Virus record (IMG/VR): IMGVR_UViG_3300033508_000294
Span: 1 to 35,596 of that record
Length of the DNA stretch: 35,596 nt
Source: a virus
Reading direction: 5' to 3' (one strand)
The position numbers were made by a program, and so were the translations under genes. This document shows positions 9,856 to 20,394 of the stretch, one piece after another. The notes beneath the pieces are model-generated. The model saw only the letters and a program-made list of their open reading frames with translations. It ran no database searches and had not been told where the DNA came from. The first letter of the stretch is position 1. Each line of letters begins with the position of its first letter.

Positions 9856-9871
9856 ATCTTCCCTTTTTTTT
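9841..9871. terminator. bidirectional rho-independent terminator
   Basis: The palindrome gggaagattt/aaatcttccc is followed by T8. It sits between convergent genes and overlaps both stop codons. Confidence 0.75.
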
Positions 9872-11303
9872 AATCTTCATCATCAATAATAAAATCACCT
9901 GTTGTATCATCATACATTAATCCATAAGTTTTATCTGGATTATGGTCTTTACTATCCATCCAATCTATTAAATCACCTGTATATAAATCTCTATTTTTAC
10001 AAATTGTTCTCATTTCACCCCAAGTAATACGAAGTTCTCCCCTATCATTTTCATATGCATAAGCTATTGTTAATACATCTGTTAAAAAACTTGCCATATA
10101 TTCACCATTATTAAAGGTATCACCATATTTTTCATCTTCAACTTCTTCATAATCTGCTTCTTCAACTTCTTCATTCCATTCTGGAAAATCTGCATCTGTA
10201 TATTTATTACCATTTTTATTTTTTGTGGTATAATTATAATATGTTTTTAATGTTTGTTCAATATCATATACTGAAGTATATATATCTTTACCTATTTTTA
10301 TTGTACCATCTGAATAAATAATAACTGTTGCTTTTTTATTATCATCAAAATAATCAACATATATCATAGGTTCATCAGGATAAAGATCAATATCATCACA
10401 ATACATATTCAATGCATCTTGCATTAAATAATTTACTTCTGAATATATTTCATATAATTCTTCATCAGTTAAATCATTTTTAGATTTATTTCTTGATTTC
10501 TTTTTTGATTTTTTATTTCTTCTACTTGATGGATAATTATATTCATAGGTTTCAACCTTTGTATGATCTCTTACTGTTGGTAATTCTTCCCATTTTACGT
10601 TTATAATTGTATCTGCTAATAATTCTAAATATGTTATATTTTGAACTTCTTCTGAACTATGTTCATGGAAATATCCAACTGATAAATTAGTACATTCCGG
10701 TATAAGTCTTACAAAATTAGCAGAATCAGTAAATATACCAAATGGATCTTGACTAAAACTTTTACGATGACCCCAATTAGTTAAATTGAGTTGAGCTGCT
10801 AAAGCATCTGCAAATTCACCTGAACAACAAGTACTACCTTTTTGTTTTGTAATAACTGAACCATAATCCCTTCTATCAAATGCAATACATCTTTTATATT
10901 TTGTAAATCTTTCTGGTTCTTTTTTAACTATACCACTTGAACCTACACTACCCCTTTCTTCACCAATGAAAAAATAATAAAGTCCCGGAACATTATTTTC
11001 AATTAAATTCATAAGTAATACTACACCTGCTTTATCATCTGCACCAAGTATTGTATTTCCACTTGAACCAACACCAGTATCACCACTTTTAGTTAGAAAA
11101 ATATCATGTACTACTTTTTCTTTTTTCATAGCAGCAGTATCTAAATGACAACAAAACATAGTTTCACTTTCACCTATTTCCATATACCAATTACCTATTG
11201 AATCTTTTATTAATTCTTTTGGTAATCTATCTAATAATTGATCTTCTTCACCTAATATATAAGTGTAATCAGTTAAATCTAAAAATTTTTGTTGTATGTT
11301 CAT
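9870..11303 (-). CDS. M20/M28-family zinc metallopeptidase-like protein with long acidic C-terminal extension
   Basis: CHLDTA (HxD), GADDKAG (DDK metal ligand), GEERGSVGS (EE catalytic/metal pair) and GYFHEHS follow the order of M20/M28/M42 peptidase motifs. The C-terminal ~200 aa is D/E/Y-rich. Confidence 0.55.
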   Translation of the reverse strand: MNIQQKFLDLTDYTYILGEEDQLLDRLPKELIKDSIGNWYMEIGESETMFCCHLDTAAMKKEKVVHDIFLTKSGDTGVGSSGNTILGADDKAGVVLLMNLIENNVPGLYYFFIGEERGSVGSSGIVKKEPERFTKYKRCIAFDRRDYGSVITKQKGSTCCSGEFADALAAQLNLTNWGHRKSFSQDPFGIFTDSANFVRLIPECTNLSVGYFHEHSSEEVQNITYLELLADTIINVKWEELPTVRDHTKVETYEYNYPSSRRNKKSKKKSRNKSKNDLTDEELYEIYSEVNYLMQDALNMYCDDIDLYPDEPMIYVDYFDDNKKATVIIYSDGTIKIGKDIYTSVYDIEQTLKTYYNYTTKNKNGNKYTDADFPEWNEEVEEADYEEVEDEKYGDTFNNGEYMASFLTDVLTIAYAYENDRGELRITWGEMRTICKNRDLYTGDLIDWMDSKDHNPDKTYGLMYDDTTGDFIIDDED

Positions 11304-11987: not shown

Positions 11988-12019
11988 AAAAAAGCTCAAA
12001 TGTTATTTTGAGCTTTTCT
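11988..12019. terminator. rho-independent terminator
   Basis: The hairpin aaaagctcaaa-tgttat-tttgagctttt overlaps the stop of the gene at 12003-12545, with an A/T run beyond it. Confidence 0.6.
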
Positions 12020-12545
12020 TATGGTAAGTTTCTTTTGTCTTAAAAGACCAATTTTTATCTGGTCTATACTTTGTCTTTTTTAAATAATTATAAATAGGTT
12101 TCCAATCATTTAATGGTGAAAATCCACATTTATCTTCAAAAAGAATGTTGTAGTATGGTTTCTTATAATAATACCCAAAACAACCTGTTTCTGTTGAAAT
12201 TTCGGGGTTTTCATTCACATACTTGATATGGATATTATCTTCTTTAAATGTTTCCATATATTTTTCAATTTCTTCCGGATAAGAAGATGTAAATAAAAAC
12301 ATAACAATATCATCCCTTTCACTTAATAGTTGTAAGGTTTCTTTTGCATATGGATAATAATCTATATTCTTTGTTACCTTTCTGTAATCAGGTCTTGATA
12401 TTACACCATGTACGTCGAAAGCCCAGTATGTAGCATACCACTGATTCTTTTCAGCATGTTTAAACATCTTCTTCATCCATTTAAGGATAGGTGGTTTATA
12501 GAAAAAATTTATCATATAATAATTGCAGCTAAGTTTAATAAACAA
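12003..12545 (-). CDS. hypothetical protein (weak HAD/5'-nucleotidase-like motif)
   Basis: YWAFDVHGVIS resembles HAD motif I (DxDGV) but has His in place of the second Asp, so the assignment is tentative. Confidence 0.35.
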   Translation of the reverse strand: MFIKLSCNYYMINFFYKPPILKWMKKMFKHAEKNQWYATYWAFDVHGVISRPDYRKVTKNIDYYPYAKETLQLLSERDDIVMFLFTSSYPEEIEKYMETFKEDNIHIKYVNENPEISTETGCFGYYYKKPYYNILFEDKCGFSPLNDWKPIYNYLKKTKYRPDKNWSFKTKETYHKKSSK

Positions 12546-12697
12546 ACAAATAGATTTATTGATAAATTATTTATATTAGTTGTCCTATCAAAACGTGGGT
12601 CTCTTAATTTCAAAAAAGATTGGTAACTTAACCAACCAAATACTATCACACAAATTATATTGGCAATAGTTAAAATTACTAAAAATGTACTCATATC

Positions 12698-12976
12698 TTA
12701 AAATTTTAATTTTCCTTGTACTCTTAAACCATGTTTATTCAATTCAGGAATATCTGGTCCAACATATCTGATTGAATCCACTTCATTTTCATCACCTTCA
12801 TTAATAAAAAGGTGTCCTGAATATTCATGCCAAATTCCATTTTCATCACATCCCCAACCTTCAAATTGTTCATCAATTTTTTCCCATTCTACTGAGATTT
12901 CATGCCCATTGGGTAATTTTTCTATTGTTATCATATTTTTATGTATTAAATTATTTTTTATTAGCTGGGTAAACAA
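12698..12976 (-). CDS. hypothetical protein
   Basis: A 92-aa ORF packed within a same-strand gene string. Confidence 0.4.
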   Translation of the reverse strand: MFTQLIKNNLIHKNMITIEKLPNGHEISVEWEKIDEQFEGWGCDENGIWHEYSGHLFINEGDENEVDSIRYVGPDIPELNKHGLRVQGKLKF

Positions 12977-13214
12977 ATCTCTTCTGTACTGTTGTTACAA
13001 TTACAATAGTATCTTTATCTACTTTAGTTATGATTCCCGGTTGTGTATTTCCAGTAATAACATGGAACTGTACTGAATCACCTATTTTCATAGTTTTATC
13101 AAATTCCTTTTTTATCTTTTCAGTTTTAATTGTTAAATAAACAACAACCACAATCATTAATATTGTTGCAATAAATAATACTATTATTCCTATTATAAAT
13201 CCTAATGTATTCAT
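12951..13214 (-). CDS. small membrane protein
   Basis: N-terminal TM segment (FIIGIIVLFIATILMIVVVVYL). Confidence 0.4.
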   Translation of the reverse strand: MNTLGFIIGIIVLFIATILMIVVVVYLTIKTEKIKKEFDKTMKIGDSVQFHVITGNTQPGIITKVDKDTIVIVTTVQKRFVYPANKK

Positions 13215-13391
13215 ATCTTTTTATTTTTTATGTTGTCCTTGATAATGTAATTCACCAAGAACTACTGTTATACTTGAAATTACTGCAAATTCAAAACTTA
13301 TTAATTTCCAAAATGTCAAATATGTTATTCCATATAACACATAATAGAACATTCTTGATGTCCAAAAACTTTCTTTTTCTTTCATATCTTT

Positions 13392-13688
13392 TTATTTATT
13401 AAATATTTGAGTAAGTTTAATATATCCTACTAATATTATGATACCTGATACTACATCACATATTATTTCTGGTGTACTTTTTGGAAGTGCATTCCATCCA
13501 AAATAAACAGATTCAGATAACCAAAGGATTATTCCAAACATTAATATTCCAAAAGGTACTAAATATTTTTTATTCTTTTTTACAAGTGGATGTACTTCTC
13601 CAAAATTTTTATCATTAGAATATTTTTCTCTCAATTTATTCCATTCTTCATCCATTTTTGGATAAATTCTTTTAGTACTTTCGTCCAT
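13392..13688 (-). CDS. small membrane protein
   Basis: Two predicted TM segments (LVPFGILMFGIILWL; VVSGIIILVGYI). Confidence 0.4.
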   Translation of the reverse strand: MDESTKRIYPKMDEEWNKLREKYSNDKNFGEVHPLVKKNKKYLVPFGILMFGIILWLSESVYFGWNALPKSTPEIICDVVSGIIILVGYIKLTQIFNK

Positions 13689-14367: not shown

Positions 14368-14544
14368 TTTTTAAGTCTTTGATATAAATGTAATACTATT
14401 TGAAAAGGCCATACCCATGCACCTATCAATCCGCCTAATCCATCTGTTTTCTTAGGTGCTGTTCTACCTGATAAACGATACCACCATATAAAATATAATG
14501 ATACTAATATCCCTACTAAATAATAACCTATTAATATTTCCATA
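14364..14544 (-). CDS. small membrane protein (not in ORF track)
   Basis: My own translation gives MEILIGYYLVGILVSLYFIWWYRLSGRTAPKKTDGLGGLIGAWVWPFQIVLHLYQRLKK. Its stop overlaps the next ATG (ATGA). It fills an otherwise non-coding gap. Confidence 0.35.
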
Positions 14545-14555
14545 ATTTCTATTTT

Positions 14556-14765
14556 TTAAAATGATACGATACCTTTCTTTCTATTTGCTAATTCCCTATC
14601 ACGGTCTTTCTTCCAAACACCAGTTAGATATTTTTCCAAGATAACATGATTTCCAAGTATTCTTATATACCCTTCACCATTATTGGCTCTTTCAATTACA
14701 TTTTCTAAATATTCCTTTTCATTATGTTTTAGAATATGTTCTGTAAAACATGCCATTGTTCTCAT
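14556..14765 (-). CDS. hypothetical protein
   Basis: A 69-aa ORF overlapping its neighbour by 4 nt (operon-like). Confidence 0.35.
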   Translation of the reverse strand: MRTMACFTEHILKHNEKEYLENVIERANNGEGYIRILGNHVILEKYLTGVWKKDRDRELANRKKGIVSF

Positions 14766-14965
14766 ACTTTTTTATTTCTTAAATATTTATCATTAAAATC
14801 AGTCATACCTCTGAAGAAAAGACCAAGTACAACACCAGCAAATATTGCATAAAGATCAAAATTAAAATCTTTATTTCCTATTTTTAGGATAACATAATAA
14901 AGTATCCAACCAAGTGTCATAATACTTAATGATACTAACCAAAGTCCGATTTTTTCTATTTTCAT
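14762..14965 (-). CDS. small membrane protein
   Basis: Two TM segments (IGLWLVSLSIMTLGWILYYVIL; AIFAGVVLGLFF). Confidence 0.4.
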   Translation of the reverse strand: MKIEKIGLWLVSLSIMTLGWILYYVILKIGNKDFNFDLYAIFAGVVLGLFFRGMTDFNDKYLRNKKV

Positions 14966-14980
14966 AATTTTTATTTTTTA

Positions 14981-15145
14981 ATTACCAAAAATTGTTAAAG
15001 AACTAATTCCAAAAATAGCAAAAGCAAATCTCCAAAATCCATGCCATTCACCTGGATTAAAACTCCATCCTAAAAAGGATAGACACAAATAAACTATTAG
15101 CATTATACCAATGTAACTAATAAGATTTTTTAAAAAGTTTACCAT
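14981..15145 (-). CDS. small membrane protein (not in ORF track)
   Basis: My own translation gives MVNFLKNLISYIGIMLIVYLCLSFLGWSFNPGEWHGFWRFAFAIFGISSLTIFGN. It fills the gap between genes. Confidence 0.3.
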
Positions 15146-15150
15146 AATTT

Positions 15151-15957
15151 TTATTTTTTAAGTAAGTTAATTAATTCACCAAAAGTAACAATCTGTACAC
15201 CAAGTTTCTTAGCCTTTACCATCTTAGATGTTTCTGAACTCAAATCATCTGTTACCAAGAAACTACAATCCTTATTAAGAGTACCAGCAACAACACCATA
15301 AGGAGCAACTGCTTTCTCAAAATCACCTTTAGTAGCAAATCCAAATTCTTTAGGTGAACCCGTCATTTCCATAATTCTTGTTTTCATATTACTATCATTA
15401 TTTTTTGTATCTTCTTTAGGGAATATTATTTCAACATTAGGAAGTGTTGAAATCTTTTCAACTACTTCTTTAATTTTAACCATCATATCAGAATCTTTAT
15501 TCTCAATATTTTCTCTGATTGAATATTCAATCCCTGTGAAGTCATAGAGAAGTCCACAATAGAATTTCTCTACTTGTTTAGAAATAGTATTACCTACATT
15601 ATAAAATTGTAAGGATTCAACTATATCACATAATTTAAGGGTTTTAATAGAGGATATTGCTTCCATCAATTTATCAAGTGCTCTACCACCTTTAAATTCA
15701 CCACTATCCATAAGTTGTTGTGGGGTAACGGTAAGTAAATCAGTAATATCTCTAAGACCAGCATCATAAAATTTCTTGAAAATAGCAGGACCAATTCCAG
15801 CAATTTCAAATGCTAACATTCCTTTTTGGAACTTAATAACTGCAACACCACCACAATCAGGGTTGTCACAAACTAATTTATATTTACCATTTTTTCCAGT
15901 AGTTACTTTGAGTTTTGAACTACATTCAGGACAAGTTGTTGGAATAAATTCTATCAT
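15151..15957 (-). CDS. standalone NAD-ligase (LigA) C-terminal module: Zn-finger + HhH + BRCT, no adenylation/OB domain
   Basis: CPECSSKL...CDNPDCGG is a 4-Cys LigA-type zinc finger. LAFEIAGIGPAIFKKFYDAGLRDITDLL is a helix-hairpin-helix. The C-terminal GVVAGTLNKDCSFLVTDDLSSETSKMVKAKKLGVQIVTFGEL is BRCT-like. The protein starts directly at the Zn finger. Confidence 0.65.
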   Translation of the reverse strand: MIEFIPTTCPECSSKLKVTTGKNGKYKLVCDNPDCGGVAVIKFQKGMLAFEIAGIGPAIFKKFYDAGLRDITDLLTVTPQQLMDSGEFKGGRALDKLMEAISSIKTLKLCDIVESLQFYNVGNTISKQVEKFYCGLLYDFTGIEYSIRENIENKDSDMMVKIKEVVEKISTLPNVEIIFPKEDTKNNDSNMKTRIMEMTGSPKEFGFATKGDFEKAVAPYGVVAGTLNKDCSFLVTDDLSSETSKMVKAKKLGVQIVTFGELINLLKK

Positions 15958-15979
15958 GTTTTATAATTTTAATTAGATA

Positions 15980-16010
15980 CAAAGATAATACAAATAAATG
16001 AAATAACAAA
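15980..16010 (-). promoter_or_regulatory. Bacteroidetes sigma-A-type promoter (minus strand TTTG-N19-TATCTTTG)
   Basis: Read on the minus strand, caaa at 16007-16010, a 19-nt gap, then caaagata at 15980-15987 give TTTG-N19-TATCTTTG. It lies 22 nt upstream of the ATG at 15957. Confidence 0.55.
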
Positions 16011-16016
16011 ATTTAT

Positions 16017-16289
16017 TTAAATAATTGGGGATTCCACTATTGCAAAATGTGTTATTTGACACTGATCACCTTCTAAATCATAACCTATCCATTGTTTATC
16101 TTCCATAAATAATTGTCTGGCTGTTCTTGGAAGAATTTCAATAAATGAACATACTTTATCATTTCCTCTTAAGAAGGTTGCTCTTTGAAATCTTGAACAA
16201 TCCTTATCTGTCAAATTATTTTGCCAAATTAAAATATTTTCACCTACAATATTGTAATTGTTGATTTCATTGATGTTAATCCAGTTCAT
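16017..16289 (-). CDS. hypothetical protein
   Basis: A 90-aa ORF with its own copy of the promoter motif. Confidence 0.45.
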   Translation of the reverse strand: MNWININEINNYNIVGENILIWQNNLTDKDCSRFQRATFLRGNDKVCSFIEILPRTARQLFMEDKQWIGYDLEGDQCQITHFAIVESPII

Positions 16290-16315
16290 ATGTATAATTT
16301 TTAATTAATAATATA

Positions 16316-16346
16316 CAAAGATAAGATAAATAAATGTAATAACAAA
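16316..16346 (-). promoter_or_regulatory. Bacteroidetes sigma-A-type promoter, duplicate of the 15980-16010 element
   Basis: caaagata at 16316-16323 and caaa at 16343-16346 are spaced 19 nt apart. The surrounding ~55 nt resembles 15961-16016. Confidence 0.55.
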
Positions 16347-16355
16347 ATTTATAGG

Positions 16356-19375: not shown

Positions 19376-20362
19376 TTATTTATTTTTAAAGGTTTTAAAA
19401 TCATTTAGAATTTCATCAGAAGAATGTTCAAGCGCATAGATTCTGAAATCATCAAAACTATCTCTGAATTTATTAAGCATATCTCCAAGTTCTTTATCCT
19501 TCAGTTCAGGATATAGTTCCATAATTAGTTTACCATTGAATTTATTATAGATAGATTCATTTTCATCATCAATTTTTTGAAGTTCTTGAATCTGTTCTTT
19601 CAGACGAGCTTCTGGAAAATACTTATCAATTTCATCAATGTAATCTACTTTTTCTTTAAATTCATAGGTCTTAGTGATATTATTATCAGTAAGATATTCA
19701 AGGAATTTTTGATAAGAAGTTCTCTTCCTATTTCTTTTCCTATCAATAGAATTCATATTATCCCATTGGAAAATATTATGGTCAAAATATTTTGAACCAA
19801 TAATAAAATTAAAAATTTGTTCCATTTCATCAAAACCTTTAAGATATTTATTATAATTAAATCCAAGAAATTCTACTGTTTTTTGATGATTTTTAGTTAC
19901 AACAATATCTTTAGTTTGTCTACCACTAAAACTTCTTACAGGAAAAATCAGACCATTCCATCCAAATTTTAGTCCAAACTTGTGATAAGTTTTTCCACAA
20001 ATATTAGAAAAAGGATCAAAGTCAAACCATTTGATTGCAAAATTCCAATCATCTTCCTTAATAGAAATGAAATCAATTTGGAAGTTATCATAGTCAAATG
20101 ATACAACTCCACCATTATTATAGATTTCAGTAGGATTAAAATGTTCCTTGATGAATTCAACCATATTGATGTTATTTAGATTTTCAGTTTTCCTAATAAG
20201 AACATCAAGGTCACCATGATCTTTTTTATTATAATAAGATTGTACACATTTAGTATCAATTCCTAATTTAAAAAGAACATCAGTAATTTCTTGTGAAATT
20301 CTATTGTAATCTTCAGTAGACTTTCTTACCGTTATTGCTACTTTAAGTGCTTTTCCGCCCAT
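19376..20362 (-). CDS. hypothetical protein (possible pol-beta-type nucleotidyltransferase fold)
   Basis: KKDHGDLDVLI resembles the hG[GS]...DxD motif of minimal nucleotidyltransferases, but the match is weak. A TATCTTTG -7 element lies 21 nt upstream. Confidence 0.35.
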   Translation of the reverse strand: MGGKALKVAITVRKSTEDYNRISQEITDVLFKLGIDTKCVQSYYNKKDHGDLDVLIRKTENLNNINMVEFIKEHFNPTEIYNNGGVVSFDYDNFQIDFISIKEDDWNFAIKWFDFDPFSNICGKTYHKFGLKFGWNGLIFPVRSFSGRQTKDIVVTKNHQKTVEFLGFNYNKYLKGFDEMEQIFNFIIGSKYFDHNIFQWDNMNSIDRKRNRKRTSYQKFLEYLTDNNITKTYEFKEKVDYIDEIDKYFPEARLKEQIQELQKIDDENESIYNKFNGKLIMELYPELKDKELGDMLNKFRDSFDDFRIYALEHSSDEILNDFKTFKNK

Positions 20363-20383
20363 TTTTTATAATTTAATTAGATA

Positions 20384-20391
20384 CAAAGATA
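20384..20391 (-). promoter_or_regulatory. Bacteroidetes-type -7 element TATCTTTG (minus strand)
   Basis: caaagata lies 21 nt upstream of the ATG at 20362. The flanking sequence matches the 15961-15990 promoter copy. Confidence 0.45.
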
Positions 20392-20394
20392 GTA

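Follow-up and report, generated by a model that had tools for sequence, protein, structure and literature searches.

NAD-dependent DNA ligases made of two separately encoded chains are already known from T5-like phages. Annotations of T5 and related phages include a subunit A and a subunit B of an NAD-dependent ligase (PMC3632103, PMC6813398), deposited for T5 as ligA AAU05253 and ligB AAU05254, and two PDB entries, 9hu3 and 9i5i, bear the title 'PR1 phage heterodimeric DNA ligase in complex with nicked DNA', with chains named 'DNA ligase (NAD(+))' and 'DNA ligase subunit B'. This structural precedent consists of the entry title and the chain names, and our literature search found no paper describing it. 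In single-chain LigA, the helix-hairpin-helix (HhH) domain grips the two DNA strands across the minor groove, the zinc finger connects the OB fold with the HhH domain, contacts between the NTase and HhH domains close the clamp, and the BRCT domain helps DNA binding (PMC10504179). An earlier note on the DNA described here, made from the sequence letters, missed the two-subunit precedent (PMC3632103; PDB 9hu3). Because the two-subunit principle is established for T5-like phages, no long-standing question is opened by the locus reported below.

The gene lies in a window of 35,596 nucleotides, by which we mean the whole stretch of viral DNA that was analysed; it extends about 15 kb from the gene in one direction and about 20 kb in the other. 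The complete genome probably measures several hundred kb. The window has about 25% GC. PHROGs matches identified a 1143-aa tail sheath, a prohead-peptidase-like protein, endonuclease VII and a DNA-polymerase-like protein, and the window further encodes a C5 methyltransferase, a dUTPase-like protein and a gamma-glutamyl cyclotransferase. From the tail sheath, the prohead peptidase, endonuclease VII and the other matches it follows that the window is part of a large tailed phage, and on its sequence features we assign it to an AT-rich huge tailed phage (myophage). An origin from a giant eukaryotic virus, which a major vault protein (MVP) match and ankyrin domains could suggest, was rejected on the matches to the tail sheath, the prohead peptidase and endonuclease VII.

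The gene, hereafter ligase B, occupies positions 15151..15957 on the minus strand and encodes 268 amino acids and a stop codon. Its protein begins MIEFIPTTCPEC and consists of the zinc finger, HhH and BRCT regions of NAD-dependent DNA ligase. The four-cysteine zinc ribbon (15850..15942, minus strand; residues 6-36) has its cysteines at C9, C12, C30 and C35, all of them invariant in an alignment of 19 family members, and it aligns with the region of E. coli LigA that starts at residue 404, as well as with the zinc finger of 1dgs. It is followed by the HhH domain (15442..15849, minus strand; residues 37-172) with four glycine-containing hairpins, whose glycines G54/G56, G91, G122 and G142 are invariant in the family alignment. 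The BRCT domain (15154..15381, minus strand; residues 193-268) carries the motif E-x-TGSPK (T199, G200, K203) and K245, which are likewise invariant in the family.

Profile, sequence and structure comparisons all assigned the protein to the C-terminal part of LigA. In PHROGs, phrog_3869 (full-length NAD-dependent ligase) was matched at profile positions 391-654 of 656 (E 3.8e-31), and phrog_3498 ('NAD-dependent DNA ligase', 256 positions) was matched end to end (E 1.9e-20). The LigA equivalogs of NCBIfam, TIGR00575 and NF005932, matched by their C-terminal third alone (model positions 391-651, E ~1e-17), with scores of about 61 bits against full-length cut-offs of 369-444 bits. PDB sequence matches covered residues 403-660 of T. 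filiformis LigA (1dgs) and residues 404-669 of E. coli LigA (2owo). Pfam matches were weak overall, with BRCT at 21.8 bits (cut-off 21.3) and the HhH (HhH_5), pol-lambda fingers and Zn-ribbon domains all below cut-off. An AlphaFold2 model built with 19 homologues (mean pLDDT 87.2, and above 90 for most of residues 37-170) contains a beta zinc ribbon, nine helices within residues 37-170, a disordered linker and a BRCT fold of four strands and three helices in the order beta-alpha-beta-beta-alpha-beta-alpha. Foldseek placed this model onto the LigA structures 2owo, 4glx and 1dgs and onto chain B of the phage heterodimeric ligase (E 4.3e-11), and the BRCT domain gave structural and sequence matches to the BRCT domains of LigA and RFC1 (Foldseek, PDB). 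These results demonstrate that ORF 15151..15957 is a complete Zn-finger/HhH/BRCT module of LigA, beginning at the four-cysteine zinc finger.

Canonical LigA (E. coli 2owo, T. filiformis 1dgs) has the same order of zinc finger, HhH and BRCT domains, with the same cysteines and hairpin glycines, but it carries domain Ia, the NTase domain and the OB fold in the same chain. Domain Ia, the KxDG NTase domain and the OB fold are absent from the B polypeptide, which is thus not a canonical single-chain LigA. An in-frame TAA is located at 15961-15963, two codons upstream of the B ATG, and therefore there is no hidden N-terminal extension of B. With four phage ligase N-termini as queries, tblastn found no NTase or OB domain in any frame of the 35.6-kb window, and an unfiltered search with a profile HMM built from 12 phage LigA N-termini found no Ia, NTase or OB domain there. 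The same two methods detected no NTase or OB coding potential in six related loci with close homologues. A Pfam scan of all 15 window ORFs of at least 200 aa gave no ligase or NTase match, and the PHROGs and NCBIfam scans of the large window ORFs gave no catalytic ligase or NTase gene. The earlier note had read the ORF as a LigA C-terminal module with no adenylation or OB domain encoded nearby, and both parts of that reading are borne out; an in-frame NTase extension upstream, which it had named as the finding that would overturn it, is excluded by the TAA.

B belongs to a well-defined family. Its homologue clusters number at least 47, at 50-98% identity, each 264-283 aa long and with an identical start residue. 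Judged from the alignments, the family is under evident constraint, as seen in its fixed length and its invariant cysteines, HhH glycines and TGSPK motif. In IMG/VR, relatives of B at 56-69% identity are stand-alone modules, and those at 31-37% identity are C-terminal parts of full-length LigA from other huge phages. A second clade of stand-alone B proteins was also observed (L024 1875..2648, L025 2158..2919; 254-258 aa), which keeps the zinc finger and HhH domains and has a divergent C-terminal domain without TGSPK.

A catalytic counterpart was found when a profile of two N-only ligase proteins was searched against 1.84 billion representatives. The best 150 matches included stand-alone proteins of 388-426 aa, hereafter A, which end shortly past the OB fold and have in common a family-specific tail of about 25 aa, roughly SPxxxxYxxYIxxFIKN. 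A search seeded with seven A proteins returned about 95 clusters of 400-430 aa with the Pfam domains DNA_ligase_aden and OB. The A proteins have an Ia-like N-terminus, align to residues 14-395 of E. coli LigA and retain KxDG, TRG, RGE, NPRN, LDGIV, AVKF, LHN and GEIIP. The loci that bear them have 22-26% GC, and the neighbourhood of the A gene is conserved, as judged from two more A clusters that were compared.

Co-occurrence of A and B on the same contig was observed on two contigs. On the JGI contig Ga0675942_0000067 (616,614 bp), P0389 (A, 405 aa) lies at 156,427-157,644 and P0033 (B, 60% identical to the window protein) at 255,637-256,461; the two genes share a strand and are separated by about 98 kb. 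This contig is syntenic with the window, with B, a 180-aa protein (o180), the peptidase, the UVR-motif protein, the tail sheath and endonuclease VII at 38-65% identity. The second pair is more distant and lies on IMG/VR 3300037067_004189 (61,215 bp), where a B-like gene of clade I at about 1.9-2.65 kb and an A gene at about 57.5-58.8 kb are separated by about 55 kb. The separate adenylation-domain gene that the earlier note had proposed to look for is thus not within the 35.6 kb of the window, but an Ia-NTase-OB gene is present on the same contig as B in these two relatives.

Elsewhere the two genes were not found together. The 10-20 kb around B are free of A genes in the window, L001, L010-L012, L107 and L109, as are the 10 kb around the B homologues P0026 and P0046; conversely, B is missing from the 10 kb around A in L111-L116. 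A was not detected on several contigs of 21-94 kb that bear B; a 344,634-bp IMG/VR contig with A gave no B with either a clade-specific profile or a degenerate DNA pattern; and a scan of JGI metagenomes with the B profile returned short contigs alone, with no further A-B pairs. Such missing partners on partial contigs are expected if A and B lie 55-98 kb apart, but they do not speak in favour of the pairing either. An IMG/VR scan with a 12-sequence N-terminal profile yielded 80 loci, all 80 of them full-length LigA and none on B-bearing contigs, and its automatic pattern NPRN[FL]... shuts out the A family, which has NPRNW/Y. A first protein search with the 12-sequence profile returned almost exclusively full-length proteins among its best 120 matches, together with two short ones. 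Of these, P0060 was rejected as a subunit A, as it is broken by a 28-nt duplication, and P0118 is an N-only ORF of a different lineage and possibly chimeric. The 28-nt direct duplication, GGTGATATTATTCCTATTGTTCAAAAGG (L110, 1200..1260), cuts off behind the OB fold a huge-phage LigA that is otherwise full length. Either the assembly is at fault or a frameshift happened recently, and the case warns against calling every short ligase ORF a subunit.

Compared with the T5-type enzyme, the ligase of this lineage is divided at the same point, between the OB fold and the zinc finger, and in both cases the NTase and OB domains form a separate subunit A. The T5-type B subunit, of about 250 aa with zinc finger, HhH and BRCT domains, aligns end to end with the window B. 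Likewise, residues 2-246 of 9hu3_B (248 aa) align end to end with positions 2-266 of the B profile, and subunit A of 9hu3 matches P0389. The T5-like B of Vibrio phage D51, which starts FIPTNCPTC, has 24% identity to the window B (BLASTP E 3e-13), and the A and B genes of this phage, divided at the same boundary, are about 0.8 kb apart. In contrast to T5-like genes, which are adjacent or within about 0.8 kb of each other (L005, L120), the genes here lie 55-98 kb apart. Subunit A is also longer in this lineage (about 405 aa, versus 319-339 aa in T5-like phages), and its conserved C-terminal tail is absent from the T5-like A of Vibrio phage D51.

The nearest relatives of both halves are the full-length LigA proteins of huge phages (IMG/VR L013-L022, Lak phages and Tenacibaculum phage pT24), single chains of 610-700 aa with 33-38% identity to B and about 37-44% to A. 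These proteins and B have in common the unusual BRCT motif E-x-TGSPK-x-FG. In neighbour-joining trees, calculated without bootstrap, the stand-alone A clade was nested inside full-length huge-phage LigA and the window B clade grouped with the C-termini of full-length huge-phage LigA, whereas the T5-like subunits grouped with the bacterial-like ligase of phage c-st. This grouping in distance trees suggests that the split in this lineage arose independently of the T5-type split. Another phage LigA encoded in pieces was seen in the 462-kb huge phage LR756500.1 (L008, 1788..4900), where a 282-aa N-piece and a 396-aa C-piece flank a 337-aa homing-endonuclease-like ORF, possibly part of a mobile intron or an endonuclease gene standing on its own. 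There the cut falls inside the NTase domain, just before WAIAIKF. This case differs from the window B lineage in both cut boundary and genetics.

Directly upstream of B, a bipartite promoter-like motif, AAATTTTGTTATT-N13-TTATCTTTGTAT, is followed by the leader CTAATTAAAATTATAAAAC and the B ATG (15958..16014, minus strand; the region includes the in-frame TAA). A second copy of the bipartite motif is located at 16313..16350 (minus strand), ahead of an unannotated 90-aa ORF at 16017..16289, and the downstream half-motif with the leader CTATCTTTGTATCTAATTAAATTATAAAAA is found at 20363..20392 (minus strand), ahead of the DNA-polymerase-like gene at 19376..20362. Two copies of AAATTTTGTTATTnCATTTATTT, the 23-nt upstream portion of the motif, are present in the window, where 0.07 would be expected. 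Among related loci, ATTTTGTTATT-N13-TATCTTTGTA was found 20-24 nt upstream of B genes in the window, L010 and L122, and at the same distance upstream of A genes in L111 (the 616-kb contig), L116, L159 and L160. Some of the A and B genes with the bipartite motif also carry the leader CTAATTAA, and the motif is otherwise rare among the related loci scanned.

Two classes of upstream element can be told apart in the window. The TATCTTTGTA class lies upstream of 9292(+), 15957(-), 16289(-) and 20362(-), and its genes encode ligase B, the DNA-polymerase-like protein, the UVR-motif protein and the 90-aa ORF product. A TAATATATAA-like element lies upstream of 9131(-), 5537(-), 17023(+), 16899(-) and 30283(-), ahead of the sheath gene and others; structural genes carry this element, which differs from TATCTTTGTA. 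The TATCTTTGTA and TAATATATAA-like motifs are probably temporal promoter classes. The half-motif in front of the DNA-polymerase-like gene would tie the B gene to the promoter class of a replication gene, and we infer that A, B and the polymerase-like gene belong to a common candidate promoter class for replication genes.

Taken together, these findings make it likely that B is the non-catalytic subunit of a two-gene NAD-dependent ligase, whose subunit A is encoded tens of kb away, outside the window. By analogy with the relatives, A would be present in the window's own genome, and the two subunits would associate and seal nicks in this lineage. In the proposed mechanism, B would contribute the zinc finger, four HhH motifs and the BRCT domain, and A (about 405 aa) domain Ia, the KxDG NTase domain, the OB fold and the lineage-specific tail of about 25 aa. 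Following the single-chain LigA and the T5-type heterodimer, A would self-adenylylate with NAD+; the HhH motifs of B would then bind the minor groove on both sides of the nick, and the B BRCT domain may hold the 5'-phosphate end; finally, A and B would clamp the nicked duplex for AMP transfer and sealing. The tail of A may serve as a docking element for B. The promoter class of A and B, apparently that of a replication gene, would fit a role in Okazaki-fragment joining and nick repair during phage DNA replication.

A more far-reaching version of this history is conceivable, and we offer it as a tentative proposal. According to it, an independent split within the huge-phage LigA clade was accompanied by a new docking tail of about 25 aa, the genes drifted 55-98 kb apart yet stayed co-regulated by a dedicated promoter, and B may have acquired a further function that does not depend on A, the sensing of nicks or 5'-phosphates, for example in competition with host LigA or in recruitment of replication factors via its TGSPK-type BRCT domain.

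We consider it improbable that B works without any phage catalytic partner, either as a nick or end binder that competes with host LigA or as a protein whose BRCT domain recruits host or phage factors. In favour of this view, B itself lacks catalytic residues, the A and B genes are unlinked, so that separate use of B is possible in principle, and the BRCT domains of LigA and RFC1, whose structures the B model matches in the case of RFC1, bind DNA ends. However, the lineage also has a stand-alone A family that matches B, occurs on the same contigs and is co-diversifying with B, and the upstream motif is common to A and B genes. The family-specific tail of A, moreover, sits exactly at the chain cut, which suggests co-adaptation of both halves. 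Defence-system models gave a weak BRCT-only match to B and no other defence or anti-defence family. Of the three functions that the earlier note had considered for the module, namely competition with host LigA at nicks, recruitment of host factors and partnering with a separately encoded catalytic domain, the last is therefore favoured by the A genes on relatives' contigs and by the common motif, and the competitor framing found no support.

Split inteins join protein halves by trans-splicing, as in cyanobacterial DnaE, and are known where the genes are far apart. A split intein that joins A and B post-translationally into a single-chain LigA would agree with two distant genes on the same strand, but we regard it as highly implausible. 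Only 5 residues of B precede the first zinc-finger cysteine, and the part that aligns to LigA begins at residue 5-6; a C-intein of about 35 aa would not fit in front of it. The tail of A, at about 25 aa, has neither the length nor the motifs of an intein (an N-intein has about 100 aa), and no intein domain appeared in the precomputed Pfam matches of A and B proteins. Finally, the ORF could be what is left of a full-length ligase in decay, or an artefact of assembly or a frameshift could conceal its N-terminal domain. Artefacts of this kind do occur, as in the broken LigA of L110, but here no frame of the window or of six related loci encodes NTase or OB domains, start position and length are kept in 47 clusters from independent assemblies, and B has its own promoter-like motif with an in-frame stop immediately upstream, so that the conserved stand-alone architecture and the invariant functional residues exclude this explanation for practical purposes.

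With the two-subunit ligase as the preferred reading, the labels 'dead' or 'truncated' ligase are inappropriate for huge-phage ORFs that encode an orphan 'LigA C-terminal' part, and stand-alone N-terminal ORFs of 400-430 aa are better read as subunit A. In phages, an essential replication enzyme has apparently been divided on two or more occasions at one and the same domain boundary, and it appears that two ligase genes can become unlinked yet stay co-regulated. The lineage would also be a source of a naturally two-piece ligase whose A tail is a candidate docking element, of possible interest for split-ligase tools and for the study of modular nucleotidyltransferase assembly.

Several further observations were made on the surroundings of the two ligase genes. 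In a relative whose B is 68% identical, a gene for a glutamine-dependent NAD synthase (574 aa; CN_hydrolase and NAD_synthase domains) lies two genes downstream of ligase B (L107 11735..13459, L108 2882..4606), and possibly supplies the ligase cofactor. A 180-aa protein encoded at 12003..12545 (minus strand) adjoins ligase B in all relatives at 47-73% identity, with a weak match to phrog_1238 ('phosphoheptose isomerase') as its sole annotation. The peptidase-like gene at 9870..11303 of the window has two or three paralogues within 20 kb in relatives (L107 2169..2984, 6663..7631 and 14467..15855; L012 6552..7511 and 12199..13629). The 328-aa product of the DNA-polymerase-like gene (19376..20362, minus strand) matches positions 1-269 of 350 in a 'DNA polymerase' PHROG, was without a match in Pfam and NCBIfam, and is conserved in relatives over its last ~70 residues alone; it may be another fragmentary or split replication protein.

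Ribosomal protein S21 is encoded upstream of the ligase A gene, a position conserved in other relatives, and a 489-aa ankyrin protein lies near the ligase A gene of the 616-kb relative. This contig, Ga0675942_0000067 (L111, L001), also encodes SmpB, S21, peptide deformylase and a NUDIX hydrolase, as well as a hybrid histidine kinase/response regulator, DnaJ and HD-domain proteins. In the window itself, a 256-aa protein with ankyrin repeats is encoded at 397..1167 (plus strand), and an 826-aa protein at 1583..4063 (minus strand) contains the Shoulder domain of major vault protein (E 1.6e-26) and Vault_3 repeats; it has no PHROG match, and a vault domain is unusual for a phage.
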